From the NCBI GenBank assembly GCA_039096225.1, contig JBBPEB010000005.1, positions 930,001-994,000 on the forward strand: a DNA stretch of 64,000 nt, given 5' to 3'. Position numbers and translations under genes: made by a program. Of the stretch, positions 4,492 to 30,454 are shown piece by piece (the first letter of the stretch is position 1; every line of letters starts with the position of its first letter). The stretch comes from Blastocystis sp. Blastoise (lineage: Eukaryota > Protista > Bigyra: Opalinata). The notes under the pieces were generated by a model. The model did not search any database. It saw only the letters and a list, made by a program, of their open reading frames with translations, and was not told the DNA's origin.

Positions 4492-5387
4492 ATTCTTCCG
4501 TTCTTCGAACTGCAGAAGGGGGTATGCAAACCCCGCATAGAGTCTGCGCGACGCGCGCAGCCATAAGCGGGGAAGACATCCCCCCTTTTTGTTCTCGACG
4601 GAAGAATTATTAACATTTCTGAAGTAAAATAACCATGGGAGTGTAGGGTAGTGTGTGTGTGTATTTATTTTTTCCCATGTTTATTTATTTTTAATTTATT
4701 TGTGTTCCGATTCCAACGTGAAACGTAAAGTGATCAAGGAGAAACTCATAGTAATCATAAAAGAAATAAAATACACACTCACACCCTCCCCTTTACAGGG
4801 AATATTCATGGGAAATGGCTCCATCGTTGGTAAAGTGAGTAAAATAATCACGGGAATACAGAAAGAAATACGAAAAGAAGCACAGAATGTGCTAAATAAA
4901 CACACACCCCGACCCTCCCTTTATATAGAGAAAAGATGAAATGGATGGTTCTATCTAAAAAGAAATAATAGAAATAATCACGGGAATATATAAAAATAAA
5001 AATGTATGTATAGTGATCAATAAATAATATAAAAAGTCATGATAATCATAAAAAAAATTATATAAAAAGAGTAAAGTGATCAAGGTATGTATTTATAGTG
5101 GGTGAAAGAAAAGCTGGTGGTGGTGTGGTCTTGTAAAAAGATGTACCCACCACCACGATTATAACGAGAGACTTTTGGAAACAAGGGTGACCGTTATGGA
5201 AATAGGATGCGTCATCGTGAATTGTCCAATCAAATTGCTTAAAAATGTAAAAATGAGGGATTTTGGAACACAAAAACATAATTATATTGGGGAAACTGGG
5301 GAAACTAATTGTGTTCCAGTGGTTTTAGGTGGCGGGGTGTATATCAATTTTCTAGAATATTCTAGAACATTCTCGAAACTTCTAGAA
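4492..5387 (+). repeat. Left terminal inverted repeat of PLV copy 1 (896 bp)
   Basis: Near-perfect reverse complement of 35145-36041. Confidence 0.96.
5350..5387. promoter_or_regulatory. Heat-shock-element-like array at the inner end of the TIR
   Basis: TTCtaGAAtaTTCtaGAAcaTTCtcGAAacTTCtaGAA: 8 alternating nGAAn units. Confidence 0.75.
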
Positions 5388-9223: not shown

Positions 9224-10261
9224 TTAATGAAAAGATGGATAACCAGAATAATGTTTTTTATTTAAATAAGGATTGAAAATGCGTCGTTGACTATCTTGTA
9301 TGATTTGATCTTGTATGATTTGTAAGATGGATTCTTTAGGTTTATCTTTTTCATCTCGTTCAATACCTTTCAATGAGACTTCTTCTTCAACAGGTAAAAA
9401 CTTCTTCATTTTCTTTTCATATGTAGATACATGTTCATTAGGACGTTTAATACCACTACCTGATACTTCACCTTGTTCTTCTCGTTTCTCTTTTTCACTA
9501 TCTTCTTCTGTCCATTTCCTTTTCTTTACCATCTTATAGACATTCTGTTTACTACCACAATCAGGATTTGTCCATATCGTTAAATCATCACTACCTTGTT
9601 TTAACATAAAGAATTGATGTGGATCATTCATTAATTCTTCATCTGTAAGAATTTCATTTAGATTTGATGGCATAATCTTTAATTTATCTGGTAAGAATCC
9701 AGGATCACGTTTTAAGATTTGACTATTAATAAAGAAATGAGATACTTGACTTAATATAGATTGATTGGTAACATCTGTATGACTTTGAAGACATATAATA
9801 GCATTCTGTTTATAATGACGACCTTTAGATAATATAGATACAATCAATTGTTTGGTTTGTCTAGATAATGGATAGATATCATCCAATACAATAAAATTAT
9901 GTTCTGGTAATTTATATGTATTGACTAATTCATCAACAGTTTTAATCTTTTTAAATTTATCATCTACAGAATCATACCATTTATAATCAATTCCAGCATG
10001 CTCACAAATATCTTGAAAGGATGTATAACATTCATTCTTATTGGATGCATCAGGACAAATTACTGTGACTTGTTTATATTTATTTTTAAGATCCATAGAA
10101 CATAAGAGGTTCACAGTTAAGAAAGATTTACCTGAGAATGTTCTTGCAATAATCAATATGAATTTTGATTCATATGTTTTATGATGGGATTTTCCATATT
10201 TAAATTCTAAGACTCCACATCCTTTACGTGTTTCTTTTAATGGATTTATTTTATTCACCAT
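9224..10261 (-). CDS. A32-like (FtsK-HerA superfamily) genome packaging ATPase
   Basis: Walker A variant ARTFSGKS, Walker B FIVLDD, family signature KGRHYKQNAIICLQ. Confidence 0.92.
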   Translation of the reverse strand: MVNKINPLKETRKGCGVLEFKYGKSHHKTYESKFILIIARTFSGKSFLTVNLLCSMDLKNKYKQVTVICPDASNKNECYTSFQDICEHAGIDYKWYDSVDDKFKKIKTVDELVNTYKLPEHNFIVLDDIYPLSRQTKQLIVSILSKGRHYKQNAIICLQSHTDVTNQSILSQVSHFFINSQILKRDPGFLPDKLKIMPSNLNEILTDEELMNDPHQFFMLKQGSDDLTIWTNPDCGSKQNVYKMVKKRKWTEEDSEKEKREEQGEVSGSGIKRPNEHVSTYEKKMKKFLPVEEEVSLKGIERDEKDKPKESILQIIQDQIIQDSQRRIFNPYLNKKHYSGYPSFH

Positions 10262-11098: not shown

Positions 11099-12322
11099 TT
11101 AATTGGTTGCACCATCTCTAACAAATTTAACAAATATAAAATGAGCATATAAAGTATAAGTACCACTAGTAATATTTGCACCATTATATTCAGTTAATAA
11201 GGAGATATTAACTTCACAACCACTACGAGTATTGACATCAACAACACTTGAAATAGGGAATATATAAATAGGTTGTTCATACCACTTTTCACCATTCAAA
11301 GGAGATTGAGGATGACTATTACATCTCCAAGTATTATAAAGCATAGCATTAGGAATAATTTGTGATGGATTCGTTGTTTTATATGTAGTAGGGAAATCCG
11401 TCTTAGGTAAGATATTTTGACCACCAATTTGGAATTGACACATCTTCAATAATTCAGTCTTAATAGGAATCATACTCTTCTCTTGAGTTGTAAAATATAG
11501 CATACAGTAATCAGGTACGAAAACAACACTTCTATTGGATAAGAATTGTTGTGGAGTTGGTTTACCTGCTGTTGTGAATGTTTCTGAATAAACAGGTGTA
11601 GTAAATGCAGATATTTGACAATTATTAGGAATACATTTAATTAAAGCACGTGGATCATTACCAAAATTAATATCATAAATTTGTTGAAGATGAATATAAA
11701 CACGATCAAAAGTTAATGCAGTGATTTTAGTCGTACCTGTAAATAGATTCTTTAAATAATTTGTAACGAATTGCATCTTCAAAGATTTTACTTTAATAGC
11801 ACAATCAAATGTACCAAGACCAGTAATAAGAGATAAAGGAATAATAACTTGAGCTTTAGTAGAACTTTGCATTCCAGAAATACTACTTAATGTTGTATTA
11901 TATAAGCATTCTGTCATACTATACATAGATTTATCAATTTCATCTTTACTTAATTCTTTAATAGTAACAAATTTTCTTGCTTTACTGGATTCAATAGAAG
12001 ATTCAGAATAATTAATAAGAATATCTTGACCCGTAGGAGATACAAACGTAAGATCTGTAGTAATTTTATCAATAATACTATAGATATTAGAATGTTGTAC
12101 AACAGAACTAGTTGTAGCTGCATTTGTTGTAATATTGAAATTCAGTTCTAAGAATGAATTACTGAAATCAATAAAAGGACTATCCACTGAATTATATAAG
12201 AATTCAAATGGATAAGGTTGATTTAATAAATCTTGACTTGTAGAAACTAGAATAGGAATTTGTACAGGTTTAATAGTTTGATTTGCCTTTGAAGGTAAGA
12301 ATTGTCTTGGGAATCCTTCCAT
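11099..12322 (-). CDS. Major capsid protein 1 (double jelly-roll), 407 aa
   Basis: N-terminal pattern FIDFSNSFLELNFNI...NIYSIIDKI resembles Polinton/PLV MCPs; size, beta-rich composition and gene context agree. Confidence 0.75.
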   Translation of the reverse strand: MEGFPRQFLPSKANQTIKPVQIPILVSTSQDLLNQPYPFEFLYNSVDSPFIDFSNSFLELNFNITTNAATTSSVVQHSNIYSIIDKITTDLTFVSPTGQDILINYSESSIESSKARKFVTIKELSKDEIDKSMYSMTECLYNTTLSSISGMQSSTKAQVIIPLSLITGLGTFDCAIKVKSLKMQFVTNYLKNLFTGTTKITALTFDRVYIHLQQIYDINFGNDPRALIKCIPNNCQISAFTTPVYSETFTTAGKPTPQQFLSNRSVVFVPDYCMLYFTTQEKSMIPIKTELLKMCQFQIGGQNILPKTDFPTTYKTTNPSQIIPNAMLYNTWRCNSHPQSPLNGEKWYEQPIYIFPISSVVDVNTRSGCEVNISLLTEYNGANITSGTYTLYAHFIFVKFVRDGATN

Positions 12323-12492
12323 TTTAATAATTATTGTTTATGTATTTTTTAAATAAAAAATAAAATAATAATGATATTTTATAATTATAAAATTATTTGA
12401 AATTCATAACAAAACAAATGATTGGAATATAGAATAGAATAGAATTAATTAAACAAGTTAACGTTAAGAATAGTAAGTAAGAAATATTAAAT

Positions 12493-13965
12493 TTAAATAT
12501 CACGTACACTACGTACAGCAATCATATGTAATGTATAAGGATGCTTCTCATTTAGTTCAGTATTAATATGTTTATAAATACCAGCATGAGAAGCAACGGC
12601 ATAAGAAGCACCAGTGTCAGGTGTCCATATTTTAGTAGTTTCATTATATGTACATGTATATCCATCAGGAACAGTGGATGAATCAGCATGACCATATTCA
12701 ATATCATGGACATCTAGATTACAATCAAAATTCATTTCTATACCACTATCTGATTGGATATTCATTAATGCTTTAGTTGGAATAATATAAATAGGATGTT
12801 TAATCCATTCATCATATTTAAGAATAGTTTCAGGATTTGAATTATCAGCCCATAAACAATATAGATTTTTATTAGGACAAGATAAACTAGCAGTTTCTTC
12901 ATTATTGAAGACATGACCTTTAGTAGTAAGATTATGATAATACATTTGAGTAGGGAATTCAGTTTGAGGGAACATTTGAACATCACCAATCAAACAACTT
13001 TGATATTTAGGCCATACAGATGGACTAGCTACATTACTAATAGTTGTTGAACTATACCCATTTGTAAACCAGTATAATATATATTCAGGTATAAATGGTA
13101 AAGCTCTATTGATATTGAAATGATCACTAGTTATTCTTGTATTTTGATAATCGACTTGAATACATGTAGGTATAGTTTTATATAATTCATTCGTTTGGAA
13201 TTGAATATCTTTATAAGTCATTAAATTCATAGTAGCTGATTCCAATTCAAATGTCTTAAACCATTTTTCATCAGTTAGATGTAACCATTGTGTTGATAAT
13301 TTAGCACCACCATTCTTGAAATAAATACTCATATTATTATCAATTAAGGATTCAATTGTACTCGTTCTAAATAACATATTGAAATGTTTAGTTAATATTA
13401 ATGAATCTCCATCAACACCTAAACCACTAATGAGATATAAAGGAATAGCAATATGAATAGATTCATTTGGATGTGCACGTATATAACGAATAGAATTCAA
13501 TTCATAAGTATCTGCAGATAAATCTTCACCATACATAGATTTTTCTAAATCATTCTTACTGATATCTTTTAATAAAATCATTTTACGACCACGTGAAGCA
13601 TGTGTACAGTTTTCTTCATATTTCAAAGCACGATCAGATCCATCAGGTAAAGTATAAACCATTTCAACATCAGTGGAATCAATAATAGAATAAATATTAG
13701 CTTTTTGAACTAATTGATCCAAGAAATATTGACATAATTGATCATAGGTGAAACTAACAGAAGTACCTGTTTCATCTAAATAAACAGAAACTGGTCCAGC
13801 TTTATCTGTGACAGTTGCCTTGACAGTAAGATCCAAATAGGATTGATTGAAATTGATATAAGTGTTATCCACATTAGTCCAATGATATTGAAAGATATAA
13901 GGACTTGATAGAATATCAGTATCACTTTGAATAGGAATATTATCTTTAATTCTTAAGATTCTCAT
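12493..13965 (-). CDS. Major capsid protein 2 (paralogue of MCP1), 490 aa
   Basis: Collinear blocks shared with MCP1: NIYSIID, RK...K.ISK...EKSMY, IPL.LI.GLG, F.P.Y, P.T.FPT, W...PIYI.P. Confidence 0.72.
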   Translation of the reverse strand: MRILRIKDNIPIQSDTDILSSPYIFQYHWTNVDNTYINFNQSYLDLTVKATVTDKAGPVSVYLDETGTSVSFTYDQLCQYFLDQLVQKANIYSIIDSTDVEMVYTLPDGSDRALKYEENCTHASRGRKMILLKDISKNDLEKSMYGEDLSADTYELNSIRYIRAHPNESIHIAIPLYLISGLGVDGDSLILTKHFNMLFRTSTIESLIDNNMSIYFKNGGAKLSTQWLHLTDEKWFKTFELESATMNLMTYKDIQFQTNELYKTIPTCIQVDYQNTRITSDHFNINRALPFIPEYILYWFTNGYSSTTISNVASPSVWPKYQSCLIGDVQMFPQTEFPTQMYYHNLTTKGHVFNNEETASLSCPNKNLYCLWADNSNPETILKYDEWIKHPIYIIPTKALMNIQSDSGIEMNFDCNLDVHDIEYGHADSSTVPDGYTCTYNETTKIWTPDTGASYAVASHAGIYKHINTELNEKHPYTLHMIAVRSVRDI

Positions 13966-16212
13966 TTTTTTTAAATAAAAAAATATTAATAAATAAAATA
14001 AAATTAATATAAATTATTATTTAATAAATTAGAAAAATATGGAACTTGATGATGATAATTATGAAGAACAGACTTCATTAGAAGAGAAGGATACTCGTAT
14101 TAAAACACATGTAGTCCCTATTGATGTTCGTTGTATTGATAATCAATTCAATATACATTTATCGAATTCTATTGATATCACTAAAAATATCATTTCTTAT
14201 ATTGATCTTAATTTAATTGGTAGTGAAAGTGTGCCTCTATTTGATACTTTCACAAAAACACAAATATTCAAATATATAAATACTCGTGTCAATGGTAATG
14301 AACAAATTCAAACAATTACTTTAGATCAGAAAAATTATTCTATTCCTCAATTATTAGAACTATGTCATTTTGATATATGTGATAGACCAGTAATAAAAGA
14401 TTCTCCTGATATTGATCCCACTGTCAAAATTAATGAATCCCCTACAATAACCATTGATAGAGATGATTGGTATTGTGAAATTACAATTTATAATAAAAGA
14501 CGTGGTTTTTACTTTCCAAAAGGTACTTATACGGATATAGAGTTTTGGTGGATAGCTGTATGTTGTGTATCAGCTAAATGGGGTGATAAATTTAATCGTT
14601 TAATGATGAAATATGATGATGATACTATAACCATATATCGACCTCAATTAGCTTCTTATAATGTTCCTGTTACATCAACAGGAATCTATGAATTGAATGA
14701 ATTCTTTACTGATGGTGTGAGTGATCATTCAAGTTATATTGTTCCAACACAAGGTTCTAATGGAATTATGAAATGTGTATTAGCTGATGAACATAAATTT
14801 TATTTCCAATGGTCAAGTAATAATATACTCAGTTTAGAAAAACAATTATTCACTGGCTTATTTGAAGATTCAGAAACATTGACATATACTTCACTTCAAG
14901 AGGAAATTACATTAAATAGAATTAAAAGAACAGTCTTTGTGGAAGATGGATATAATACAATGATTGTTCGACAATTGAGTGGTTATGATGGTGTTCATGA
15001 AACTACATTCACTGTTCCTCCTGGAAATTACACAGAAAACAAATTCTATGAATTATTAGAAAGTTCAATCAATAATACAATTTATACGGATTATTTAAGT
15101 ATATCCAAAGATGCTCAGACTATGGACAATAAGGATGGATATATAATATATTTATCTTGTAAAGGTACTGATTCTACGTCATTCACATTTACAGCTACAG
15201 ATATAGAACATTCATTATTTAAGTATCGTGGTGCTCTACATAATATACGTCCTGATCTGGTTTATGATGAACAAGGATGTTTTGCTTGGTATACTTCTTA
15301 TGGTAAACAATTATTACCAGATACACCTGTTGATTTGAATACATTAGATTTAGATGGTAATTATAAGTGTTATACTGATAGTTATCATATAGATTTCTCT
15401 CAAGCTCAAGAATTAGGTGAAATCTTAGGTTATAATAAATTAGGTCATGATGAAATTATTAATTATGGTGTTCATAATATTGATAGTAGTCGTCCAAAAG
15501 GAATGTTAATAGCTCAATCGAATATAGTAGATAATAGTCAGAATTCTTTATATTCATTTAATGTGAATAATTATAAAGGCAATAATGAATTTCATGATAT
15601 TATGAATATTAATGTGTCTCCTTATTTGAATACAATACAAGATATTACAATACGATATACTGATAAAAATAAACAATATGTGAATTTCAATAATAATTGT
15701 ATTTTAAGAGGATTTTTAGAATTCTCAGATACAGTCGATACGATTCAACCTAGTGAAACCATTAAGAAATTATGTTTGAATTGTTTAACAGCAGACACAC
15801 AATTCTATGCTGAATATCCTACATTGAATATCCAGAATAAGATCTTAAAAGATATTATTATTCAGAATGATACTGATACGATCCAAACAAATGCATCTAA
15901 ATTATGTACTGGATATATAAATGGATCATATTATCCTACATTTAGTTTTCCTTTATCTGATAAATATGTTACTTATAGTAATATAAATTCTCCAATCACA
16001 ATTGATCATCATATAGATTTAAGATTTGATGAATTATTCAAAGGAAATATCATTTGTAATATATGTGAACCGAATGGTAGTGATATACGTTTCAAAGCTT
16101 ATGATGAAGTATATTGTGATTTTAGTACAAGTAAGAATTTAATTTATGAATTGAAGAAAACCAATGTCTATGGATATCAATATTTAACGAATATACAAAT
16201 TACTAGGGTCAC

Positions 16213-16249
16213 GCCGCAGGTCCGGGGCCTAACGGCACCGGACCGCGGC
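16213..16249 (-). terminator. Helitron 3' subterminal GC-rich hairpin (rolling-circle termination signal)
   Basis: Minus strand GCCGCGGTCCGGTGCC-GTTA-GGCCCCGGACCTGCGGC, then GTGACC-CTAG; identical in copy B. Confidence 0.85.
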
Positions 16250-16410
16250 TGCAATGAATAATAAGTGTTTTGTTTTTATTCACTTTCTTTCCTTATTATC
16301 TACTATATATTATATAATATATATTATTTATTAAATATTATCTATAATATGTTACTTATTATCTATAATATGTTACTTATTATATATTATATATATTATT
16401 TTATTAACAC

Positions 16411-16480
16411 TTCTTATACTCTATATGGAGAGTTACAATCATATATTGATTGTAATCAGGTTCAATTCCTGATATAAGAA
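16411..16480 (+). ncRNA. tRNA-like cloverleaf 1 in Helitron A
   Basis: Stems TTCTTATA/TATAAGAA, CTCT-ATATGG-AGAG, TACAATC/GATTGTA and TCAGG-TTCAATT-CCTGA (B-box-like). Confidence 0.6.
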
Positions 16481-17879
16481 TTAAAATTTACTTTTGAATA
16501 GTATCTGAAAAACTAAAAACAATACTATAAAAAAAATAAGAAATCGTTTTTGAATCATTATATTTGTTATTTATTATTTTAAAAATATATTTTGTATTTA
16601 TAAATAGTTGAGTTACTGCTTTAATTATTATGGAGTTTCTAAAGCTAATAAATTTAGAAATGGGTCACAATGTTAAGTATTGAAAGTCATTATTATGTAA
16701 AATCATTTTAAATAGATTATAATAAGGTAGTTTACACTTTCTTTAACCATTTCATAAAACTAAAACGAATCTAACACAACAAAGTCAACATTCATTTTCA
16801 CTTTAACGACTTAAACACATAGTTTTAGAATTAATATTAATAAAGTCACTCTAAAAAGCATTTCTATACATAAAAGTGTCAACAATATCGCTTGTAAAGA
16901 GACTTCACCATTTTGATATCCAGTGTATCAAAATAGTTTTAGACATAACTTTCACATAGTATAGATCTCATTATTTCATATATTACTTATAGTTGAATGT
17001 CTTGAATCTCTGACCTAAAGACCCTTTTTTATACATTTTGAAAAGTTAACACACTTATAGTTAATTTAAAAAGCTTATATTTTAACACTATGCTCAACAT
17101 AACTCTATCAATACATTAGCTACCATTTTGACACTCTTTATAAACATTTTTCATTTGGTCATACACTTTGTCAAGAGTATTTTTGTCCCTCCTTTTAATA
17201 TAATTCAGACTATAAATAATAGTTTGATAAATAAAATGTTTTATATTGAATCTCGTCCTTTGGATAATTCATTTCTACATTTTAAAAAAATAATCCCTTT
17301 AAACTTGTTTTTAAAAGTCAAAATTTTCATAGTATAACAAAAACACAATTTTAAAAGAATAGACTTACTCTTTAAAATTTCTGAACAACTCAAACGCATT
17401 CTTAATTCACTTGTCAAAAATGAAATTCTCTTATTTTTTAATATGTTGTAGAGTACATGTTGTTCTATATTAAACAATTTCTATAATTTTAAATCTCTTA
17501 ATTTAATAACCTATTTTTTCACATTTCTTATTGCTTAAAATTTTACACATAATTAAATATATAAATGAAAGTGGAGAATACAAAACTTAATAATAACTCA
17601 ATCATTGATGTAATTATATCGCTAGTCTATATCAGATTAGGTGATAAATGAATGTTATTATAAATTAAAACAATATTAAGGACCACATACTAATAACATT
17701 AACTAATTTCAAAATTATCTTAATAGTAAGCACAATAAAAATTATAAAAAACGAACAAAACAAAAATAAATAAATAATACTAAGAAAACAGATAATAGAA
17801 AGATATTATCTGTGAAAAAAAAAAATAATAATAATAAACAAAGCAAAACAAAACAAAACAAAAATAAAATAATATGTTA

Positions 17880-19079
17880 AGTATGCCAACCAAATTAGAA
17901 GAACCTATAGAAATAAAAGATAAATATATATATATATACCTTCAGCATTAAAGAACTATTTACACCATCACTATATAGATAAAATATATAGATATATATA
18001 TTAAAAGAAATATAAATATTTGTTATATATATATATATATATATATACCTTTAGATATATTTTTATTATTAAAATAAAAGCCAACATTAGGGTGATAAGA
18101 TCCCCTATTAGAAAAGACACCTATATATAATAAATAATAAAAAATATATAAACAATAAAAATATATATACCTTCTAAAGAAGGAACAGAAAAATAAGTAT
18201 CATATCATAACTGACTTGAAGAACCTATATATAATGATAAGATAATTAATAAATTAAAAAAAAAAAGAAAGGAAGAAATAAGTATATACCTTTCATTACC
18301 TATAATAGAAGACTCGATCAGAATAGAAGGACCTATATATAAATAATAAATAAAAATAAACTAAAATAAATTAAAAAAATAGACATACCTTAATTATTAA
18401 CACCTTCAGCAACCACACACACAACAATAAAAGAACCTATAAAGAAACAGTAATAGACAAATAATAAATAAAAAAATAATAATAATAAATGAATGACAAT
18501 ATATATATATACCTTTAATACCATAGGAACAGTCTATCTGATCACCAACAACATCAACAGCAGTATTGAAAGCATCAGAAGAACCTAAATATATATAAAA
18601 GTAAAAAAAGAAAAATAAATGAATGACAACATACCTTCAACACCACACAGACATCTATCATCAACACCACTGTCAACATGCACAGCAACTGAAGAACCTA
18701 TATATATATATAGAAATAATAAAAAAATAATAATAAAATATAAAAATAAATTAAATGATTGGCAACATACCTTCAATACAATAAGAAGAACCTACAATCA
18801 CATCATTAGAACCATTAGCATCATTTAAAACAACAGAAGAACCTATAAATAAATAAAATTAAAAAAATAAAAACAAATCATTGACAACATACCTTCACAG
18901 TTAGCATAGCAGGCAACACCACAGCCTCCGTATGATACAAATAACATAGAAGAACCTAAAATAATATAATAAATAATTTAAAAAAAAAAGAAATGGAAAA
19001 TATATACCTTTAAGACCATCAGAGCAAGTAATACCAAGACCAAGAACATACACAACTGGATCCTATTGAGTAGAAGAAC
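17880..19079 (-). pseudogene. Multi-exon cargo gene (fragment) in Helitron A with repeated symmetric exons encoding GSS...(E/K)G units
   Basis: GT-AG introns at 18956-19007, 18843-18892, 18698-18770 and 18585-18634 separate exons of 72/63/72/63/72 nt. One in-frame TAG; further short exons downstream; 3' limit approximate. Confidence 0.6.
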
Positions 19080-19509
19080 CTGAAAGTTTTTGAGAAATGT
19101 ATATTTTTCCATCTACACACTTCGATCTTGACAGCATCATGCCTTCTGAGGCATCTTAGATAATATTTTAATTATAAAAAATAAGTGTTTTCTCTTAATA
19201 TAAAAATTGTGTTTATATTTCCACTTTTAAAGAATAGGGTCTATTTTAAAAATATGCTTCTTAAAAATTAATAGAAATTAAAAAACCCTTGAATTTTCAT
19301 TGATTTATTTACAAAAGTAATAATTGGGTCATTTTCTATTAAAAATATTTAGGGTACCCAAAAAACATAGTTTTTTACATTTTTTAAATATTTTATTATA
19401 TTGATTGACTGAGTATGTTTTATTTATTTATTTGATATTGTTTAGTTATTATTATTATATTTATTTGTATATATTGATTTATTCATTTAAAATATTTCAT
19501 TTTCTATAG

Positions 19510-19944
19510 GATTGTTTTGTATTTGTCTTCGTTATAGTGGTGAAGTGTTCTTGAAGTGGTCTTGGCTGTGTAAAATGGTTTATTTATGATCAGGTATATA
19601 AATATATTATTTATTTCTTAAGATCTGTTTTTCTTTTTGTTAATTCGTTTTTATTATTTATTATTTTTATTATCAATATTATTTATTTAGTCTTTACATA
19701 TAATTTATTCTATATATTATTAATAATTTTTATTCTATAGGAAAGAAACTTCAATGGATGTGTTGTGGTCTTCGTTGCTAAATATTTTCCTTCTTTAATC
19801 TGTCGTTCAAGGTTATTTTAAAGGTATATATTTATATTTTATTTATTATTTTTATTATTTATTGTTTACATTTTTTTTTATTATTTATTTATTTATTTAT
19901 TATTTATTTATTCATTTTTTTTATATGTTTATTTATTTATTAAT

Positions 19945-19975
<31 letters not shown>

Positions 19976-20050
19976 TTATTGTTTATTATTTATTTATTTA
20001 TTTATTTATTTATTATGTTTATTTATTATATATAGGTTTAATATTCTTCT
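19510..20050 (+). other. Divergent spliced unit in Helitron A (exons 19510-19593, 19741-19823, next acceptor at 20035), no clear ORF
   Basis: TATAG|G acceptors and AG|GTATAT donors are kept in both Helitron copies while the intron bodies diverge. Confidence 0.45.
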
Positions 20051-20491
20051 TAGTTTTTTTTTTCTTCTTTCTATCTTCGTTCTTCTTCCTTCTTACTTCT
20101 TCCTTCTTCCTCATCCTTCCTACTTACTTCATTCTTCCTTCCTTCTTCTTCCTTCTTCCTTCTTCATTCTTCCTTCTTCTTTCTGCCTTCTTTCTTTTCA
20201 TTCTTTACTTCTTCCTCCTTCTTCCTTCTTCTTCCTTCTTCCTTCATTCTTCGTACTTACTTCTTACTTCTCCCTTCTTCTTCACCTTGGTTCTTCATTC
20301 TTCTTCCTCCTTCCTTCTTCCTTCTTTCTTCTTTCTTCTTCCCCATCCTTGATTCTTCCTACTTCCTTCTTCCTCATCCTTCTTTCTTCCTTCTTCTTCA
20401 TCCTTCCTTCTTACTTCTTCATCCTTCCTTCTTAAACTTCCTCCTTCCTTCTTCCTTCTTCCTTCCTACTTCCTACTTCCTACTTCCTCCT

Positions 20492-20565
<74 letters not shown>
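20045..20565 (+). repeat. Polypyrimidine (CTT/CCTT-rich) tract followed by a (TA)n microsatellite
   Basis: Directly visible; the counterpart at 42233-42863 is longer. Confidence 0.9.
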
Positions 20566-20587
20566 ATTATTATTATTTATAAACTCC

Positions 20588-20654
20588 CTTTATGCTCTAG
20601 AAGGAGAGAAACAATCATTATAGATTGTTTTCAGGTTCAATTCCTGACATGAAG
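20588..20654 (+). ncRNA. tRNA-like cloverleaf 2 in Helitron A
   Basis: Stems CTTTATG/CATGAAG, CTCT-AGAAGG-AGAG, AAACAATC/GATTGTTT and TCAGG-TTCAATT-CCTGA; T-run downstream. Confidence 0.65.
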
Positions 20655-22932
20655 TCTTATTTTTCTTTTTCTTTAATATTTTTTACATATTATATATATA
20701 TATATATTTTCTCTTTTTTTAAACTTATTTTTATCTCTTTTAGATTATACCTTTTAAATTTTGACATTATATACATATATCTAACTGTTTATAGTTTTTT
20801 TAGACTTCCTCTTCTCAACAACAGTCACAATGAGAACAAATCCATTTTAACTCAAACAACTAAGTCATCTCAAAACTGTTTGAATCAATTAATATAGACG
20901 TCTATGACATAATTTATCAATTTAAACTGATTTTCAACTCTCAAAAGTAAGCAAACCAAACACACATGTTGACTTTAAAACGTTAAACTCAGTATTAAAA
21001 GATAGTTTTTATAGAGTGGACATAAAACATTGATTTAAACAAAAAGGAATGGAAACAATTCACTCTTGATACAACTTTACCATTTGACAAAACACTCATC
21101 CACAATATTTTCCAAAGTTCTTTTAGTAAAGTGTTTATATAGACATATTATGTATAAAATGAAAGTCAACTTCTTGAATCTCTTTGTTTAAGACAGTGTT
21201 TAAAACATTTTGACAAATTGACAACCTTTAACTTGCTATTTAAAGTTAATATTTAAAGAATAGACTTGATTCAGACATATAAACACAACTGTCATCACCA
21301 TAACACTTTTAAAGACACTTTACCATTTGCTCATACACTTTGATCAAAATATTTTCGTCCCTTCTTTTGACATAATATAGGTCATACACTCTAGTTTAAT
21401 GAATAAACACTCTTATTTTGAATCTCGTCCTCTAAGTCACTCATTTTTACATTTATTTAAATTTAAGACCCTTAGAGTTGACGTTTTAAATCAATTTTTC
21501 TACAGTGCACGAAATTCACGATTTTGATCAAACTGAAGTAAAAATAAATTTTAAATAATAGTCACAACCCTTCACACATCCACTCTTTAAAAATTATTTT
21601 AACTGTACTTTTGATATGTTGTAGGGCTACTATAGCTGTACACTAATTAATATCTCTAGATTTTTTATTCATAGTCTAAGACTATGTTTTACACATTCTT
21701 TTGAATTTGACAACCTTAAACTATTTATTTAAAGCTCTTATTCATAGAATAAACTTGACTTAACATTCTATACACATATGCAAACCCTTTTTCTTTTTAA
21801 GACACATTTTGTCATTTGGTCATACACTTTGACCTTCATAATTTTGACTCTTCTTTTAACATAGTATAGAGTATTATCTCTAGTTTATTAAATAAAAGTC
21901 ATTATATTGAATCTCTCACTCTAAGACCACTTAATTCACATTTTTCAAAATTGTCATACTTAAACTCATTATTTTAAGACTCTGTTTCTACTATAGTAGT
22001 TTGATGACCTATTGATTACTATGATACAATATTAGTCGATTATAAGAAGATCGAAGAAAATATCGATCACTCAAAAATCGTCTTCAGGAGCTCAAAATCG
22101 CTACACCTAGGTTTTCTGACCTCCTGAATCAGAATATGATGTCAAATTAAGAATCTAAATTTGACCGTTAAGGCCTCACGTGTTCAATATGAAAAAGTAT
22201 TAAAAAATAGATAAATATAAAGAATAAACACGGATAACGTATATTGTGGGATTGAGAAAAAATCAAGTTTACCCCATGTTTATTTTCCAATTATCTGGTC
22301 AACAATTTTTATCGGGGTCATCCCAAAGAGCCAATCAAAAACGACTCAAAAATCATGTTTTCTGCTCTTTTATTAATAACTTTTTAGTTATAAATAATAT
22401 CGCTTAACTAAATATACGGTGCACAACTACACGTTATATCGTATTGAACTGTGTTTCACTCAAAAGTTAACTCCCCGTAAGTTTAGAGGAGTTGCGGCGA
22501 CAAACTATAGTATATAGTAGCCAATCAAATGCATTCTCCAAAAACTGACCAATGGGAATTTTTTTGCCTATTCTCATATATATAGTAATGATATCAGTGT
22601 ATGGTCAATCCACTGATTACTTATATCCTATTTCATTAAGATGTTTTACTAATGAATATGAGAATAATATTCATGTTATTGATACTACAAATCTACCTTA
22701 TTACTATTCGAATGGTATTAAATATGAAGGTATATCAAATAAGATCAATAAGAATGTCTATTATTGTAATCGTAAATTATTAAAGTTATTACCTCATGAT
22801 AATATGTTCTTTATTACTTGTGATTATCCTTGTGTTGTTTTATTAACTATCTCTTATATATAAATATTTTAATTCATTTCATTTAAATTAAAAAATGTTT
22901 TGTTATATTATTCATTTAAAAATTATTAAAAA

Positions 22933-23355
22933 ATGGAGCCTAAATCTGTATCTGAATCCTTACATTCTTTATCAAGTACAAGTTCAACAAGTTCAGATAG
23001 TTCAACAACAACCACATTATCCGAAGAAGAAATAGAAAAGAAAAATACTTTATTAGAATTTATTATAAAAGCTATAAAATGTTTATTTGAGAAATCAACT
23101 GAATTCTTTCAATTAATTGTTAAAAATATAGATATTCATTGTAATTGTTGTAATCCACAAACAAAGAAAGTCTATTATAAGACAATGAAAATACAACAAA
23201 CTATTATTGAAGAAGAAGTCAAACATATATCAGAAGTCTTGAATGAATTAGAAGAAATTGATTCTAATCAAAATGAATCAATACAAGAATTAGCTGTTCA
23301 ATTAATGAAATTAAATATAAGTGTTGATTCTATTGTTCAATCTCTTCATTTATAA
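22933..23355 (+). CDS. Hypothetical viral protein, 140 aa (Ser/Thr-rich N-terminus, CxCC, coiled coil)
   Basis: Protein is identical in copy 2, with silent nucleotide changes. Confidence 0.8.
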   Translation: MEPKSVSESLHSLSSTSSTSSDSSTTTTLSEEEIEKKNTLLEFIIKAIKCLFEKSTEFFQLIVKNIDIHCNCCNPQTKKVYYKTMKIQQTIIEEEVKHISEVLNELEEIDSNQNESIQELAVQLMKLNISVDSIVQSLHL

Positions 23356-23422
23356 TTCTATGAAATGTTATAAAATATTAATAATAAATTTGTTTTGTTT
23401 ATAAATAATTTAATTTTTAATA

Positions 23423-25219
23423 ATGCAATCAACAGGTTATTCAGATAAAGATTGTGAAGAATTCTTTACAAATTGTATAGATCAATTATTACATTGGAAG
23501 AAAATACAATTATCAACAAGTATAAATTGGAAGAAATGGATAAAGACAATATGTAAGAAATTTCGTAATGAAGAACGAATTCAAATAGATGATATGGAAG
23601 AACCATTCTTTTGTGTAGAAGTCTTAACAGATCCATTTCAATTTCAAAATGTTATGCAACATACACAAACAGAAGCTCCTGGACAACAAGGTGGATTATC
23701 CAATACTACTGTAGCTAATTATATGCAAATGATTACTTATATAATGAAGAATATATCTATTTGTACAGATGATGAAGATATCATTAATTATAAAGCATTT
23801 ACTCCACAAAATATAAAGAAATGGGAACATTTATGGGGTTCTTTACAAATAGATGCTACTTATTCAAGACATTATGAAATTACTCAGAAAATTATTAATT
23901 GTGAAGCTGATTGGGGAGAAATCATTAATATCACCAAAAAGAATTATTTAGAAAATCCTAATGATTTATATTATGTGAATAGTTATTTATTAGTTTTAAC
24001 TTATGATACATTATGTGCTCGTAATGATTATAATGATTGTGTAATCTATACTCGTGGTCAACAAATTCCTTTATCGTTAAGAAGAACAACCAATTATATT
24101 GATTTAAATACTTTGACTATTCATGTGAATGATACAAAGAATCGATTTGAAATTGGTAAGAATGAATATCCTACTTATCAGTATTTATCAGAAGAATATC
24201 TAAATGTCTTAGCTAGATCCTTACGTTTATTTCCAAGACATTATTTATTTGTTACTGAGAATGGTGGGAAAGTACGTGATTTGAAATTTGGTGATGAATA
24301 TATAAAACCTCATTTAGGATGGATTTATAAAACACAACAGAATAATTCTTTAATTAATGGTTGTGATATTATAAGACATTTATTTGCTCAATATTATTAT
24401 AGATTATCAAGAGAAGCACAATTCCAACATAATGATTCAGAACATGAATCTAAAGGTGTAGAACTCTTTGAAAACTCTATTATGAAGATGTTACATAGTC
24501 AATCAACACATATGGAAAATTATATATCTCCTTATTTATCTTCTCATTCAACTAAATTACAAGATTTAGATAATAAAACAAGAACATTTCATATTGATAT
24601 GAATAATATTACTTATACAAGAGAAATTAATCAATTAAATAAATTATTATTTTTATGTAAACGATTTAATGATCGTATAGAACAATATGATGAAGATTAT
24701 GAAGATGTATTTGGTAAAGAGAATTTCAATATGAAATCAGAATCGATATTATCTACATTAGAACAATATTCATCAGATAATGATACTATAATGATTACAG
24801 TAAGATATTATAAAGATCTATTAAAGCATAAGTATCCTGATAAAAACGATTTAGAAAATGAATTACCTGTAGGATGTTCATTAGAATCTGAAGAAGTTCC
24901 AGAGAATTCTAGAGATCGTTATAATCGTTTTATACGTAATAAACAATTATTACCTGATCATTTACATAATAATACAACAGATTCAGAATTAACGAATACT
25001 CAAGCATCTCTTATGCAACAGAATACCCAAGATGAAAACTCTACACCTATAGTTATGAATAATTCAGATACTTATGCATTACGTAGTCTTTCTACTATGC
25101 CTCCTTTAGAACCTATTCATCGTGGTCATGGTTTATTGAAAAAACATAAAAGTAATGCATTCTTTAAAGTCAAAGTCCCTAAAAAACATTTTCATGGAAT
25201 TCAATTTAAATTTTATTAA
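23423..25219 (+). CDS. Tyrosine recombinase, long form (598 aa)
   Basis: Catalytic pattern CARNDY (R), VNDTKN (K), DIIRH (R), HSQSTHMENY (H, Y at +9); aligns motif by motif with the 315-aa recombinase. Confidence 0.75.
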   Translation: MQSTGYSDKDCEEFFTNCIDQLLHWKKIQLSTSINWKKWIKTICKKFRNEERIQIDDMEEPFFCVEVLTDPFQFQNVMQHTQTEAPGQQGGLSNTTVANYMQMITYIMKNISICTDDEDIINYKAFTPQNIKKWEHLWGSLQIDATYSRHYEITQKIINCEADWGEIINITKKNYLENPNDLYYVNSYLLVLTYDTLCARNDYNDCVIYTRGQQIPLSLRRTTNYIDLNTLTIHVNDTKNRFEIGKNEYPTYQYLSEEYLNVLARSLRLFPRHYLFVTENGGKVRDLKFGDEYIKPHLGWIYKTQQNNSLINGCDIIRHLFAQYYYRLSREAQFQHNDSEHESKGVELFENSIMKMLHSQSTHMENYISPYLSSHSTKLQDLDNKTRTFHIDMNNITYTREINQLNKLLFLCKRFNDRIEQYDEDYEDVFGKENFNMKSESILSTLEQYSSDNDTIMITVRYYKDLLKHKYPDKNDLENELPVGCSLESEEVPENSRDRYNRFIRNKQLLPDHLHNNTTDSELTNTQASLMQQNTQDENSTPIVMNNSDTYALRSLSTMPPLEPIHRGHGLLKKHKSNAFFKVKVPKKHFHGIQFKFY

Positions 25220-25263
25220 TTTTAAAACAAAACAACTTTTTATAATAAAAAATAAATATATAT

Positions 25264-28200
25264 TTAATTTGGTATAGCATATAAAGTATTATCTATTAAA
25301 ATTCGTTTTGTTGATGACGTATTATGATATTGATCTTCACTATAAACAATTTCTTCTTTCTTAGATAAACAATTGGATAAACAGAATAAATCTGTATCCA
25401 CACATTCATTATAAGTATTATCAATCATTAAACCACAAATACCAATAGCATTCCCCCCCTTATAGAAATTTGAAGTATGTTTTCTATGAATATTCACAAT
25501 ATCTATAGAATTAAATGTATCTTTACTACTTAAACAACCAAATAAAGCATTTGTAAATTTATCTAAATCTTTCTTAATCGTAAATTGATTATTATTATTC
25601 ACTTTCTTATAACTATTAAAAATATCTTCAATAGTAACTACATTCAAATAATAAGGATCTATAGTAATATGGTTATCAACAAAAGATTTCAAATCATATC
25701 CTTCTGTACTACGATCAAAGAATCGTTTCTTACATTCACTTATATGATATTCATTATCTAATTCATGCATATCTAATTGCATACTAGAATAGAAATAATT
25801 ACTTACTAGATAACTAAAGATAATAGAACGATTCTGATAGAATTTATCGGATAGAGTATAATCCATTTCATAATGATTAGGTTTCAATCTCTTTTCTACT
25901 GTCTGTTTACGTTTAGGTAAATTATGATCTACATAATCTTCATATAAATTAGCATTACCAGGAGGGAAATAACGACAACATGATGGTAAGAAACAAACTC
26001 TTCTTTCAATAGGACCAGCATTCACAGCAGTAGGTTGGATATTACTTGTCATAAATAAAGTACCCGTGAAATGAACTTTTGTAAATATATTACTGAATAA
26101 TTTACGAGCACTAGCACCTTCTTTCTTTTCTGCTATTTCTTTAAAGACTTTAGAAGAGAATGGATTGAATGTTTTCTTTCTACCAGTAACATCTTCTTCT
26201 ATTAATTCATTCATATAATACATTGTTTTATTAGACATATCTACAATCTTAGGAGCTATAGATGTTTCTTCTAAATTATCTGGATTTACTATAATACATT
26301 GATTACTACCTACAATACGAGAAATTAAATCAGTTGTTATTGTTTTACCATTACTACCTGTACTACCATATAATATATAAGAAACTGTTTTCTGAGTATT
26401 GACATAGAAAGCAGTGGTTAAGATACGTAACATAATACTTTCATATTTTTTATCGAATTCACAATATCTTGCAATATGTTGTTCAAATAATTGGATAATA
26501 TCTTTCTGTTCATTATTTATATTCCAACTTACATTAAATTCAGTATCAATTAATAAATCTTCAAACACCATATCTTCTTTATGATATGGTTGGATATAAT
26601 ATTGTCTAGGATCTTCTTCTGTAGATTCTTTTGGATATAAATAACCAAGTTGTGTATAGATAACACGTTCTTTATGAACCATATACGTATCTAAATATTC
26701 TTTATAAGATTTACCATAAGTCTTCAAATAACGATTCAACCATTCTTTATAATGATATTCATTAGTAACAGAAGCAGACATTATTTTATCAACTATTTTT
26801 TGATGTTGTTCATTCTCTTTGGAATATAATCTTGATAATTTGAATTTCTCTACAATCGATTTCATAAATGTAGTTATTTTGGTTTCAAAGAAATTAATAT
26901 CATAATTATTCTTACAACGTCTTAAGATATTATATTCATCAAATGTATATAAGATAAAATTATCTTTATCTAATATAATAGATACAATTTCATTAAATTC
27001 TAATAATTGAAATAACATAACTAATGTTTGTGAATCTACAAGATTAAAGGATTGAATACATTCTAAAATAGACATAAATATGAAATCATTATCATCATCT
27101 TTATTAAATAATTTATTATCCATTAATATCTTCAAAATATAATTATTCGATAAATGAGTAGGATCAACTTGTATATGATTCCATGTAGATTCAATTACAT
27201 CATCACTTCGATCATGACCATAACGCAATGAATAATTTTTAAATAATTCTAATCCTCTTGTTGTATTACAAATCTGTTTTGCTGCACAACATAATTTATA
27301 CCAAGTATTATGGGATTCAAAATAATTCATATCTTCAATAGAACCAATCAATAATAAATATCGTTCTAATAAAGCTTCTTTAGATGCTGTAGTATCCAAT
27401 ATAGTATCTGTATAAATCAACATAGGAATATCTTTAATATCTTGTATAGAACATAATATAGTACGTGAACAATTATTTAATCTTGTATAATAACGTTTAT
27501 AACGTGAATATTGTTTTAATTTATAAAAAATAATAGGATTAATAATATCACTTATAATATCATCTTCATTCTTATAATTCAATAATGTTTTGAAATAATA
27601 ATGTTCATCGATTTCATCATCTATTTTCTTCCATGTTTTATTGGTATATTCTTCATATAATTTATAAGTAGATGGAGAATTATCTTTACTACAACCAAGA
27701 AACATACAACCATTATTCTTTCTGGGTTTACCAATAACATTATAATCAATGAATTCTTTTATATCTAAATTATTCATTTTACATAAATCAACCAATTTGG
27801 TATTCAGAATCATACTATTATATAAGAAAAATAAATAATCACCATTTACAAACCAATTTGTATATATATGAATTCCCCATGAATAATGTATTTCATTATG
27901 AACTGTCTTCTTATTCACTTCTTTCTTTGTATACACAAGCGAAATAAATTCTTGATTATAATAATGAATACAATGATTACACATTTCTTCTATAAATTCA
28001 TGAATAAAAGAATCTGTTAGAAAAGAAAAATCATTTGATATTTGGTGATAATCTAAATCAAACCATAATCTTCTATAATTAGTTGATGTATTACAAGGAG
28101 TACAATCAATATAATGTAATAATTCTTTTGGATTTTGGTAATTAGTAAATAGACTTTTATAAAATGGGAATGGATTTGGTATAATAATTTCACTATGATT

Positions 28201-28266
28201 ATCTTTTGAATTATCATGATTAAAGGAACCAAAAGTATAAACAAAATGAATTTGTGAATTTTCCAT
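25264..28266 (-). CDS. AEP primase(-polymerase) fused to PriCT-2 and SF3 (D5-like) helicase
   Basis: AEP motifs WFDLDY, GIHIY and FID; PriCT-2-like TWYKLCCAAK..GLELF; Walker A GSTGSNGKT, Walker B YMNE, motif C FMTSN, Arg finger ERR. First ATG at 28266. Confidence 0.9.
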   Translation of the reverse strand: MENSQIHFVYTFGSFNHDNSKDNHSEIIIPNPFPFYKSLFTNYQNPKELLHYIDCTPCNTSTNYRRLWFDLDYHQISNDFSFLTDSFIHEFIEEMCNHCIHYYNQEFISLVYTKKEVNKKTVHNEIHYSWGIHIYTNWFVNGDYLFFLYNSMILNTKLVDLCKMNNLDIKEFIDYNVIGKPRKNNGCMFLGCSKDNSPSTYKLYEEYTNKTWKKIDDEIDEHYYFKTLLNYKNEDDIISDIINPIIFYKLKQYSRYKRYYTRLNNCSRTILCSIQDIKDIPMLIYTDTILDTTASKEALLERYLLLIGSIEDMNYFESHNTWYKLCCAAKQICNTTRGLELFKNYSLRYGHDRSDDVIESTWNHIQVDPTHLSNNYILKILMDNKLFNKDDDNDFIFMSILECIQSFNLVDSQTLVMLFQLLEFNEIVSIILDKDNFILYTFDEYNILRRCKNNYDINFFETKITTFMKSIVEKFKLSRLYSKENEQHQKIVDKIMSASVTNEYHYKEWLNRYLKTYGKSYKEYLDTYMVHKERVIYTQLGYLYPKESTEEDPRQYYIQPYHKEDMVFEDLLIDTEFNVSWNINNEQKDIIQLFEQHIARYCEFDKKYESIMLRILTTAFYVNTQKTVSYILYGSTGSNGKTITTDLISRIVGSNQCIIVNPDNLEETSIAPKIVDMSNKTMYYMNELIEEDVTGRKKTFNPFSSKVFKEIAEKKEGASARKLFSNIFTKVHFTGTLFMTSNIQPTAVNAGPIERRVCFLPSCCRYFPPGNANLYEDYVDHNLPKRKQTVEKRLKPNHYEMDYTLSDKFYQNRSIIFSYLVSNYFYSSMQLDMHELDNEYHISECKKRFFDRSTEGYDLKSFVDNHITIDPYYLNVVTIEDIFNSYKKVNNNNQFTIKKDLDKFTNALFGCLSSKDTFNSIDIVNIHRKHTSNFYKGGNAIGICGLMIDNTYNECVDTDLFCLSNCLSKKEEIVYSEDQYHNTSSTKRILIDNTLYAIPN

Positions 28267-28334
28267 GATTATTTGACTTATAAATAATGAAAATAAATAT
28301 GGTATAAAATTCAAAACAAATAATATATTAAAGA

Positions 28335-28472
28335 TTCTAGAAGTCAGTTTTGGAAGCTTCTAGAACATTCAAGAACATTCTAGAACATTCTAGAACATTC
28401 TATAATAGTAAATATTACTTTATATTTTTAAATGTTCTAGAACCTTCTAGAACCTTCTAGAACCTTCTAGAA
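28335..28472. promoter_or_regulatory. Two HSE-like arrays upstream of the primase-helicase gene
   Basis: TTCnnGAAnn repeats with 10-bp period at 28358-28400 and 28435-28472, plus a single unit at 28335. Confidence 0.75.
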
Positions 28473-28582
28473 CATCCTTTTTATACTTTAGTGTTTTAAA
28501 TGTATATACAATAAACAAAACAATTTTCAATGATTTTTTACAAGTTTATAAGTAAAAATAGAAAAATAAACAAGAAAAATAA

Positions 28583-29206
28583 TTAAATTTCAATTGGTTC
28601 TTGACTATTAATATATGTACATGAATGAGGCCATCCATTTTTATCATATAAAATACCATCCCAGAAATACATTTGTTTTGAAGGATCTCTTTTAATCTTG
28701 TTAATACTCTTAGCATGAACAACTTCATAAGTATAAACTTTACCTTTTTCATCATAAAGAAATCCATCTTCCATATGGAATTTCATAATATCAAAATCAT
28801 CATCTTTAGAATTCGAATGTTCTTTAGAATCTTCAGAACATAAAATAGTAGTTCTATCACTTTCTAAAAGATCTTCAGTATTGATAATATCTTGAATATC
28901 TTGTTCTTCATTAAGTTGTTGAGTATAAATATCAGCAGCGAATTCTTCATAATCTTCAAGACCTTTAATAACCGCGTTTATACGTTTTAAAGCTGATCTA
29001 TAGTTTTCGACTTCGAAAGAAGCAAGACGTTCTTTAGATTTTGCAATACCCAATAGATTCTTTTCTCTATTCAATTGAGACTGATGTAAATCAATATCAC
29101 GAAGAACATTCTTATGAACTTCAACAGCCTTCTTAGAATTCTTAAGAAGTTCCATACGAACAGTTTGAAGACATTTACGGGAATCAGCAGAAAGATTAAA
29201 TTGCAT
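28583..29206 (-). CDS. Hypothetical viral protein with N-terminal coiled coil (207 aa from the first ATG)
   Basis: Conserved in copy 2; short HSE at 29318-29335 upstream. Confidence 0.75.
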   Translation of the reverse strand: MQFNLSADSRKCLQTVRMELLKNSKKAVEVHKNVLRDIDLHQSQLNREKNLLGIAKSKERLASFEVENYRSALKRINAVIKGLEDYEEFAADIYTQQLNEEQDIQDIINTEDLLESDRTTILCSEDSKEHSNSKDDDFDIMKFHMEDGFLYDEKGKVYTYEVVHAKSINKIKRDPSKQMYFWDGILYDKNGWPHSCTYINSQEPIEI

Positions 29207-29604
29207 TATAATCGCGAATATCGTTACAGAGAGAAAATTTATATTTATCAAAATGAAATAAATAATACATTTAAATGGAATATTAAATATTCTAGGAGAC
29301 AGTGTAGAATCTCTATGGAATGTTCTAGAAGGTTCATTTGATTGGCTAATTTTGTCGACTTAGCATTTTTTATTTGTGTTTCAATGACGAGTATAGTTGG
29401 CATCTGTAATCTGATTGGATAAAAAAATTAGTAAAACACAATTAGACGATGACGACGATGTGTCATACGAAATAAGTTATTTTATTGGCTTATTTTCCAG
29501 CTGGAAGCAATAGGCTTTTGTTAGCAACTGAAATGAAGAACTGTACACTAAAAATAGTATATTTAATATATTGTATAAAAATACTTTTGAAGGTTTAAAT
29601 AATC

Positions 29605-30132
29605 ATGGAAATTCCTGATAGTCTTTCTGCCAGTTTATCCCCTTTCGGTCAAGCCATGATATCCCCCTTGTTGAATCCATTTGAAAATAGTGTTTCTGCA
29701 AATCCTATGGCTTTACCCAATGATAATGATTTCTGTTTTAATTCGCGTGACGAAATCATGTTTGAAGATCCACCTCAAGAAATTCATCCAATCAATGATG
29801 TTTACGTATCTAAAAATCCAGATAGATATCATTCGGTTAACAATCAACCAATACAATTTCAAGATCAAGTAAATACAAATCCTGATAAGCAAGCATTATT
29901 ATTTACAAATGAGGAGTTAACAAATATATCCAGTCAATTCGAATCTTTATTTCAAACTATTGAAACAGCTGATAATATATTAAATGGTATTTATTGTACT
30001 GTTGATCATTTAAAAACAAAGATTGAAAGTCAGAAACAAGATTTGAAACAGATTCATGATGATTCTAAAGAAATTGTTTCATTATTATCCGAATATTCTA
30101 TTCCTTCTATGTCTGAAATATTTGATCATTAA
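29605..30132 (+). CDS. Hypothetical viral protein, 175 aa, acidic N-terminus and C-terminal coiled coil
   Basis: Conserved in copy 2; upstream divergent promoter region 29340-29520 contains three ATTGG (CCAAT) boxes. Confidence 0.75.
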   Translation: MEIPDSLSASLSPFGQAMISPLLNPFENSVSANPMALPNDNDFCFNSRDEIMFEDPPQEIHPINDVYVSKNPDRYHSVNNQPIQFQDQVNTNPDKQALLFTNEELTNISSQFESLFQTIETADNILNGIYCTVDHLKTKIESQKQDLKQIHDDSKEIVSLLSEYSIPSMSEIFDH

Positions 30133-30223
30133 TTATTTTTATTTAATTAATTATTTTGTTTTGTTTATTTTTTTTTTAAATTAATTACACAAAGTTTAAA
30201 TGGAGAATAGAATAGTTTCAAAT

Positions 30224-30331: not shown

Positions 30332-30377
30332 CTAGAACCTTCTCGAACCTTCTAGAACCTTCTAGAACCTTCTCGAA
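30330..30377. promoter_or_regulatory. HSE-like array upstream of the SSB-like gene
   Basis: Five TTCnnGAA units at 10-bp period. Confidence 0.75.
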
Positions 30378-30454
30378 AATTGATTCATTTGAAAAGAATA
30401 TCGTAAAATATTAGTATTAAAATACTTATATTTTTACTAAATACTTAACTAAAA

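Follow-up and report, generated by a model that had tools for sequence, protein, structure and literature searches.

The ends of an endogenous Polinton-like virus (PLV) in the genome of Blastocystis sp. Blastoise are formed by a GC-rich imperfect palindrome of 116 nt. The palindrome is a real feature of the DNA, from which we infer its function: there is, in our estimate, an even chance that it folds back as a mismatched hairpin that closes or primes the free linear genome, acting as a telomere or origin. The window, i.e. the whole stretch of DNA analysed, has 64,000 nt (assembly GCA_039096225.1, contig JBBPEB010000005.1, positions 930,001–994,000, forward strand). It carries one complete viral copy (copy 1, 4492–36041), consisting of about 25.1 kb of viral DNA and a 6.4-kb insert, and a second, inverted copy (copy 2, 45629–64000) that runs beyond the window end. 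Only three of the four ends of the two copies fall inside the window.

Copy 1 is bounded by terminal inverted repeats (TIRs) at 4492–5387 (left, forward strand) and 35145–36041 (right, reverse strand), which are 99.4 per cent identical over 897 alignment columns. The TIR of copy 2 (45629–46385, forward strand) has an internal deletion; the 138 bp absent from it, at site 46338–46340, are present in both TIRs of copy 1. The palindrome is the outermost tip of these repeats. It occupies 4492–4607 (forward strand) at the capsid-side end of copy 1, 35925–36041 (reverse strand, 117 nt) at its recombinase-side end and 45629–45744 (forward strand, 116 nt) at the recombinase-side end of copy 2. The initial annotation had described these palindromes as viral termini, and their position at the tips of 897-bp TIRs bounding a PLV of about 25 kb supports this description. 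The 6.4-kb insert is unrelated to the virus, so the size of the element is about 25 kb, within the 15–30 kb range of PLVs. The two copies are 99 per cent identical over 12.6 kb in the replication half (22580–35191) and 94 per cent identical in the capsid half (11210–16202), a difference that suggests recombination between variants. Where the conservation of the palindrome is judged, the copies are 98.6–99.4 per cent identical.

The insert in copy 1 (16203–22591, reverse strand) is Helitron-like and absent from copy 2; a second copy of it lies at 38494–44900 (reverse strand). The two insert copies are 81–85 per cent identical. Each starts with TC, ends with a GC-rich hairpin followed by CTAG and is inserted between A and T without duplication, features that we take to be Helitron hallmarks. 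One of them splits a viral gene of 811 amino acids (aa), which is intact in copy 2 (58687–61122). No open reading frame (ORF) of Rep/helicase length was seen in the insert.

Folded as DNA, the palindrome forms a single unbranched rod with an energy of −31.6 to −36.2 kcal/mol in five folds. None of 200 dinucleotide shuffles is as stable in any of these folds (z from −5.4 to −7.6), and all the stems that had been listed for the end at 4492–4607 are present at their positions. In a stability scan of the entire window (6389 segments of 116 nt, step 10), the three terminal palindromes are the top three non-overlapping folds (−35.5, −34.3 and −31.1 kcal/mol); the next one reaches −28.7. The rod has 39 pairs, comprising 67 per cent of the bases, and one-third of the bases are unpaired. 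Perfect GC-rich stems of 10, 4, 7, 3, 6 and 7 bp alternate with internal loops, the mismatches being clustered in these regular loops rather than scattered. The palindrome was also said to be GC-rich; its GC content is 55 per cent, versus 33 per cent in the remaining TIR and about 28 per cent in the element. The arms of the 10-bp stem form direct repeats across the element (4492 with 35925, and 4598 with 36032) and have no further occurrence in the window.

The same structure is found at all three ends, as initially proposed, except for one extra G within a G-run in the copy at 35925–36041 and one A>T substitution in an unpaired loop of the copy at 45629–45744. There are no other differences, and the location of the sole substitution in a loop is a weak indication (n = 1). 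The orientation of the palindrome is identical at three of three ends, again in agreement with the initial annotation. An RNA-structure or coding reading of the hairpin was rejected: a search of Rfam gave three weak matches far under the gathering scores, none of them on the hairpin, and the ORFs that cross it are short and run into differing flanks. The distinct flanks and small private differences of the three ends make an assembly artefact unlikely.

The gene content points to a PLV of the tyrosine recombinase (YR)/primase-helicase type. The element encodes a protein of 1000 aa with AEP primase, PriCT-2 and D5-like helicase regions (25264–28266, reverse strand) together with tyrosine recombinases. 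Neither pPolB nor an RVE integrase was detected by Pfam on 19 element ORFs or by a motif scan of copy 1, which agrees with the earlier remark that a protein-primed polymerase is missing. Assignment to Polinton/Maverick in the strict sense was rejected, the element being without detectable pPolB, RVE integrase or a TSD of 5–6 bp. No HUH nuclease or motif and no Holliday junction resolvase was recognized among the element proteins, which include several small ORFs without assignment. PDB sequence searches with the primase, the recombinases and the capsid alignment gave nothing relevant.

A P-loop ATPase of 345 aa (9224–10261, reverse strand) lies in the capsid cluster. It matches the PHROG head-and-packaging family phrog_2666 (E = 1e-10), its Walker A and Walker B motifs are kept in nine of nine aligned rows, and it is likely the packaging ATPase. 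The neighbouring protein of 407 aa (11099–12322, reverse strand) is likely a major capsid protein, with a possible double jelly-roll fold. The fold is a language-model lead: the protein matches viral clusters of the ESM Atlas with a feature score of 0.97, and in one of these clusters 10 per cent of the members carry PF21738 (DJR-like). It has no Pfam, PHROG or PDB match, and its single-sequence fold was unusable (pLDDT 31.6). A paralogue of 490 aa, 31 per cent identical to it in the alignment, is encoded at 12493–13965 (reverse strand). Two tandem paralogous capsid-like genes are thus present at 11099–13965, an arrangement that seems unusual for a 25-kb PLV.

The two tyrosine recombinases are homologous (hhalign probability 84, E = 8e-6). 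Recombinase 1 has 598 aa (23423–25219, forward strand); recombinase 2 has 311 aa and adjoins the right TIR (34111–35046, reverse strand). Residues R200, K239, R318, H358 and Y367 of recombinase 1 are invariant, and the same five residues are unchanged across 21 of 21 aligned sequences, recombinase 2 included. Structural comparison covers recombinase 1 only (model of residues 1–386, pLDDT 80.9). The best matches of this model are XerH (Z = 13.1, r.m.s.d. 5.0, 293 residues aligned) and Cre (Z = 12.9, r.m.s.d. 5.1, 285 aligned), followed by the Tn1549, lambda and integron integrases at Z of about 11, the integron integrase ranking seventh (Z = 10.8). The protelomerases TelA (Z = 6.1, r.m.s.d. 8.0, 266 aligned) and TelK (Z = 5.3, r.m.s.d. 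5.3, 183 aligned) are far more distant. Foldseek gave a concordant ranking, with no PDB match reaching E = 0.001, and the nearest viral models are those of giant viruses, e.g. Aureococcus anophagefferens virus and Tetraselmis virus 1. The modelled recombinase 1 thus appears to be an integrase-type (XerH/Cre-like) enzyme rather than a protelomerase. The link to protelomerases that had been hinted at is not supported for recombinase 1, and a protelomerase model was rejected on two counts: the match of the model to integrases (Z of about 13 against 5–6), and the palindrome being one-third unpaired whereas protelomerase-made hairpins are fully paired.

The alignment of the three ends starts exactly at the first nucleotide of the stem. 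The proposed coincidence of the host junction with the hairpin base therefore holds in that the shared sequence begins there, but the uncertainty of a few A/T bases initially attached to it is too sharp at two ends. At one of them, the 11 flanking bases at 36042–36052 (forward strand) extend the mirror symmetry, 9 of 11 pairing with bases inside the hairpin; the flank before 45629 extends it by 5 nt (four of five pairs, about 15 per cent chance level). There is no mirror extension before 4492. Among 13,040 AT-rich host positions, 0.6 per cent score as well as the 11-nt mirror (p of about 0.006 per site and about 0.02 over the three ends). In a closed hairpin, the strand that continues beyond the palindrome mirrors the inner TIR; the 11-nt flank could thus be a remnant of a closed end opened at variable points. 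Resemblance of the target site (microhomology) or chance is at least as likely, because two mismatches in 11 exceed the divergence of about 1 per cent between the copies. No clear TSD is present, as had been noted: no duplication of 5–6 bp was found in the flanks of copy 1, and a duplication of 1–2 bp (T or AT) at the junctions is possible.

Two further patterns were observed at the junctions. The five bases just inside the hairpin (4608–4612 and 45745–45749) read TATTA in copy 1 and the reverse complement, TAATA, in copy 2. The outer flanks of the two recombinase-side ends (36042–36046 and 45624–45628) match crosswise, with a T.T versus A.A mismatch at the same position. Both patterns may have been left by staggered cuts at the stem base, or may be fortuitous given the AT-rich sequence.

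Of the readings considered, a fold-back end accounts for these termini most economically. The 897-bp TIRs suggest a linear genome; with no pPolB detected, the element would have to complete its ends in some other way. A genome with long TIRs but no terminal-protein polymerase faces an end-replication problem. Mismatched hairpins solve it in poxviruses, and a fold-back end is favoured for this reason. The palindrome stands exactly at the shared boundary of three of three ends and is the most stable fold of the window. The 11-nt flank mirror is such as the remnants of a closed end would give, and the lone loop substitution also counts, weakly, in favour. According to the available text of a July 2026 preprint, terminal palindromes are associated with virophages and PLVs without pPolB (10.64898/2026.07.28.741278). 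In poxviruses, hairpin ends with mismatches have a function, and the mismatches play a further part in packaging (excerpts of PMC8956199). The integrated copies would then likely show the hairpin end in its unfolded, double-stranded form. In the proposed mechanism, the primase-helicase, alone or with a borrowed polymerase, would copy the genome, and folding back would take care of end replication, for which Polintons rely on a terminal protein. Nicking close to the base of the stem would restore the ends, and the opened end would be attached to AT-rich host DNA, also near the stem base, by one of the two recombinases. The regular bulges might be read by viral proteins, as the mismatches of the vaccinia hairpin are in packaging.

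Other observations speak against a fold-back end. No flip/flop is seen among the three ends; the probability of this outcome under a 50 : 50 mix is 1/4, so that n = 3 is uninformative, and some bocaparvovirus termini exist in one form only (PMC8242256, in part). No enzyme was recognized that could nick or resolve a mismatched hairpin end, as such an end requires. A hairpin primer is not required, since the encoded primase could in principle begin synthesis de novo. The near-identical copies show no covariation, being too similar to do so. PLVs that encode a YR are usually assumed to circularize, as stated in the accessible part of PMC12220804.

It is possible, with less than an even chance, that the palindrome serves chiefly as a site of recombination, where a tyrosine recombinase would bind the ends, as duplex or as folded single strand, cut at the stem base and excise or integrate a circular form. 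The two intact integrase-type recombinases, one of them adjoining the TIR, fit this explanation, as do the junction at the stem base without TSD and the direct repeats formed by the 10-bp stem arms across the element. At two of the three junctions the flank resembles inner viral sequence with mismatches, like the microhomology of an attB site. Integron attC and CTXphi attP are recombination sites that act as folded single strands, and the size and bulged layout of the palindrome may be likened to those of attC; the integron integrase ranks only seventh against the model of recombinase 1, however. A lambda-type att pair does not need long identical TIRs, and the palindrome, at 116 nt, far exceeds the roughly 30 bp of a typical core site. 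The window contains no solo palindrome or excision scar. Circles are assumed for YR-encoding PLVs (PMC12220804) and shown for phaeoviruses (PMC13236599), in the text available from both sources. The telomere role and the recombination-site role are not mutually exclusive. We regard as unlikely, but worth stating, a combined reading, with the bulged hairpin telomere serving as attachment site too: a tyrosine recombinase of giant-virus type would recognize the folded mismatched end, open the stem base and join it to AT-rich host DNA without duplication.

A linear genome with open ends is compatible with a different explanation, which we consider improbable. The palindrome would then be a signal of internal type placed at the end (a primase-helicase origin, a packaging signal or a cruciform), providing neither closure nor a primer. 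Its constant orientation at three of three ends fits copying without inversion, the element has its own primase, and an inverted-repeat end module has been proposed as a primase-helicase origin for entomopoxvirus-associated PLVs (PMC11296320, in part). Such a signal leaves unexplained how the extreme ends would be completed without a terminal protein. Least probable, and hardly credible in our estimate, is that the terminus once folded back and was duplicated by accident, and that the palindrome is a decayed remnant carried passively with the element. Accidental annealing is named as an alternative in the available text of the preprint (10.64898/2026.07.28.741278), and conservation is seen only among copies that are 98.6–99.4 per cent identical. 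Against a relic stand the grouping of the mismatches in regular loops between perfect GC-rich stems, the 55 per cent GC of the palindrome in an element of 28 per cent GC, and its retention by both TIRs and both copies.

Terminal palindromes are already known from viruses of this kind, and hairpin ends, the inference of the initial annotation, have been proposed in print for elements of Halocafeteria seosinensis. The accessible text of the preprint describes palindromes at the TIR tips of endogenous virophages (subtypes 1, 2, 5 and 6) and of PLV subtype 4. It notes that they go together with replication genes other than pPolB and with RVE integrases, and it suggests, from the parallel with parvoviruses and poxviruses, that hairpins act in priming (10.64898/2026.07.28.741278). 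The Blastocystis element shares with them a palindrome at the outer TIR tip, the absence of a detected pPolB and the same hairpin-priming model, a proposal in both cases. The Halocafeteria palindromes came from a screen that demanded nearly perfect arms (20 bp or more, up to four mismatches, gap up to 10), and that of the figured subtype has 52 nt, lies beside TSDs and is linked to RVE integrases. In contrast, the Blastocystis palindrome has 116 nt, one-third of it unpaired, with a longest ungapped arm of 15 bp under the limits of that preprint, as emulated here; the element carries a pair of tyrosine recombinases and has neither an RVE integrase nor a clear TSD. What is new here is the longer, heavily bulged palindrome, coupled to tyrosine recombinases without clear TSDs.

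The YR primase-helicase PLVs, i.e. those associated with entomopoxviruses (PMC11296320), the cryptophyte cluster C1 (PMC12220804) and Tetraselmis TsV-S2x, are also 15–30 kb long, with TIRs, a YR, a primase-helicase and a capsid and ATPase module but no TSD. An end module of inverted repeat, primase-helicase and recombinase has been proposed for some of these other PLVs (PMC11296320). No terminal hairpin is described in the available portions of these reports, unlike here, and the Blastocystis element has two recombinases and two capsid-like paralogues. Blastocystis hominis is host to the MELD virus, a Polinton-related element from the same host genus, which carries PolB and a retroviral-type integrase (PMC8502044, in part); neither is detectable in the present element.

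Poxvirus telomeres resemble the Blastocystis ends in having an imperfectly complementary inverted repeat with loops at the TIR end, together with a D5-like primase-helicase. According to the same excerpts, the hairpins of poxviruses are rich in AT and exist in flip and flop forms; the A22 resolvase produces them, and the genomes that bear them do not integrate (PMC8956199). The Blastocystis palindrome, by contrast, is GC-rich and seen in one orientation, no resolvase was recognized and closure is putative. Parvovirus terminal hairpins are of similar size and contain mismatched bubbles, and some of the termini occur in a single orientation, but in the text available they belong to a single-stranded genome with an HUH Rep nickase (PMC8242256), and no HUH motif was found here. 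The protelomerase systems (N15 TelN, TelK, TelA and the phaeovirus telRL) share the chemistry of the tyrosine recombinase superfamily and have hairpin-ended linear DNA, which is putative here. As partly described in PMC13236599, their palindrome lies inside the integrated form, which has separate att sites at its ends. In the Blastocystis element the heavily mismatched palindrome itself forms the junction with the host, and the modelled enzyme is integrase-like.

Arrays of alternating GAA/TTC pentamers are present at 5350–5387, 28353–28472, 29318–29335, 30330–30377, 33323–33340, 33545–33567 and 35135–35182, and at matching places in copy 2. They correspond to what we take to be the heat-shock-element consensus. 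There are 43 overlapping matches in the viral DNA of copy 1 (versus a mean of 0.26 and a maximum of 4 in 200 base shuffles), one in 7.7 kb of host DNA and none in the inserts. The arrays lie upstream of the primase-helicase, of a 197-aa ORF and of recombinase 2, and also at the inner ends of the TIRs. They may place early genes of the virus, or its excision, under the control of heat stress in the host, or they may bind a viral factor. A literature search found nothing on such arrays.

The nearest named homologues of the element proteins are hypothetical proteins of Blastocystis sp. Blastoise (99 per cent identity). In the 90 per cent cluster of recombinase 1 there are 21 proteins, of which 19 are named; the 15 that are listed fall on contigs of 11 different sizes, which indicates that the family is multicopy in the Blastocystis assembly, with about 20 near-identical copies of this one gene. 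Diverged subfamilies (P0008–P0012 and P0070) are also found in this assembly. Of 2398 candidates, 163 proved homologous to recombinase 1, mostly ENA and Logan proteins with 43–49 per cent identity on contigs of at most 24 kb, which suggests a wider family; the relatives range from 43 to 80 per cent protein identity. The ENA and Logan metagenome proteins (P0023–P0141, P0002 and P0004–P0007) apparently represent a widespread, undescribed virus group. Protein-based scans confirmed no related locus in viral contigs, JGI metagenomes or GTDB genomes. There is no close match to the element in the IMG/VR or JGI scans and no match in INPHARED phages. Among three sequencing data sets, all of them contigs, one contained part of the query (share 0.24); none of the three spans the hairpin of the left terminus or shows a joint there, and no RNA data set is among the matches listed.

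Two pattern searches gave matches attributed to chance. The 17-nt apex pattern occurs in 14 viral contigs, all GC-rich (54–71 per cent), with no extension past 20 nt. The 10-bp stem pattern occurs in 4 viral and 26 prokaryotic contigs; none of the 30 has tblastx similarity to the element, all of their folds are weaker (−8 to −27 kcal/mol), and one has a weak blastn match of 50 nt to it. No description of this PLV family or of its ends was found in the open-licence literature. Neither is described in the available portions of the Blastocystis genome paper, the protist-wide survey PMC10120064, the Tetraselmis PLV preprint and a gut-virus preprint.

These termini bear on two questions: how the ends are completed in PLVs without a protein-primed polymerase, and how a tyrosine recombinase integrates a genome bounded by TIRs. 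The element is a testable case, offering a sharply defined substrate of 116 nt, two candidate enzymes with intact catalytic residues, about 20 gene copies and a culturable host genus. Screens for near-perfect palindromes would miss bulged ends of this kind, and hairpin termini may be commoner among such viruses than reported. If the telomere did double as the attachment site, it would link poxvirus-like ends to integron-like recombination of folded strands, in an undescribed family of Blastocystis viruses.
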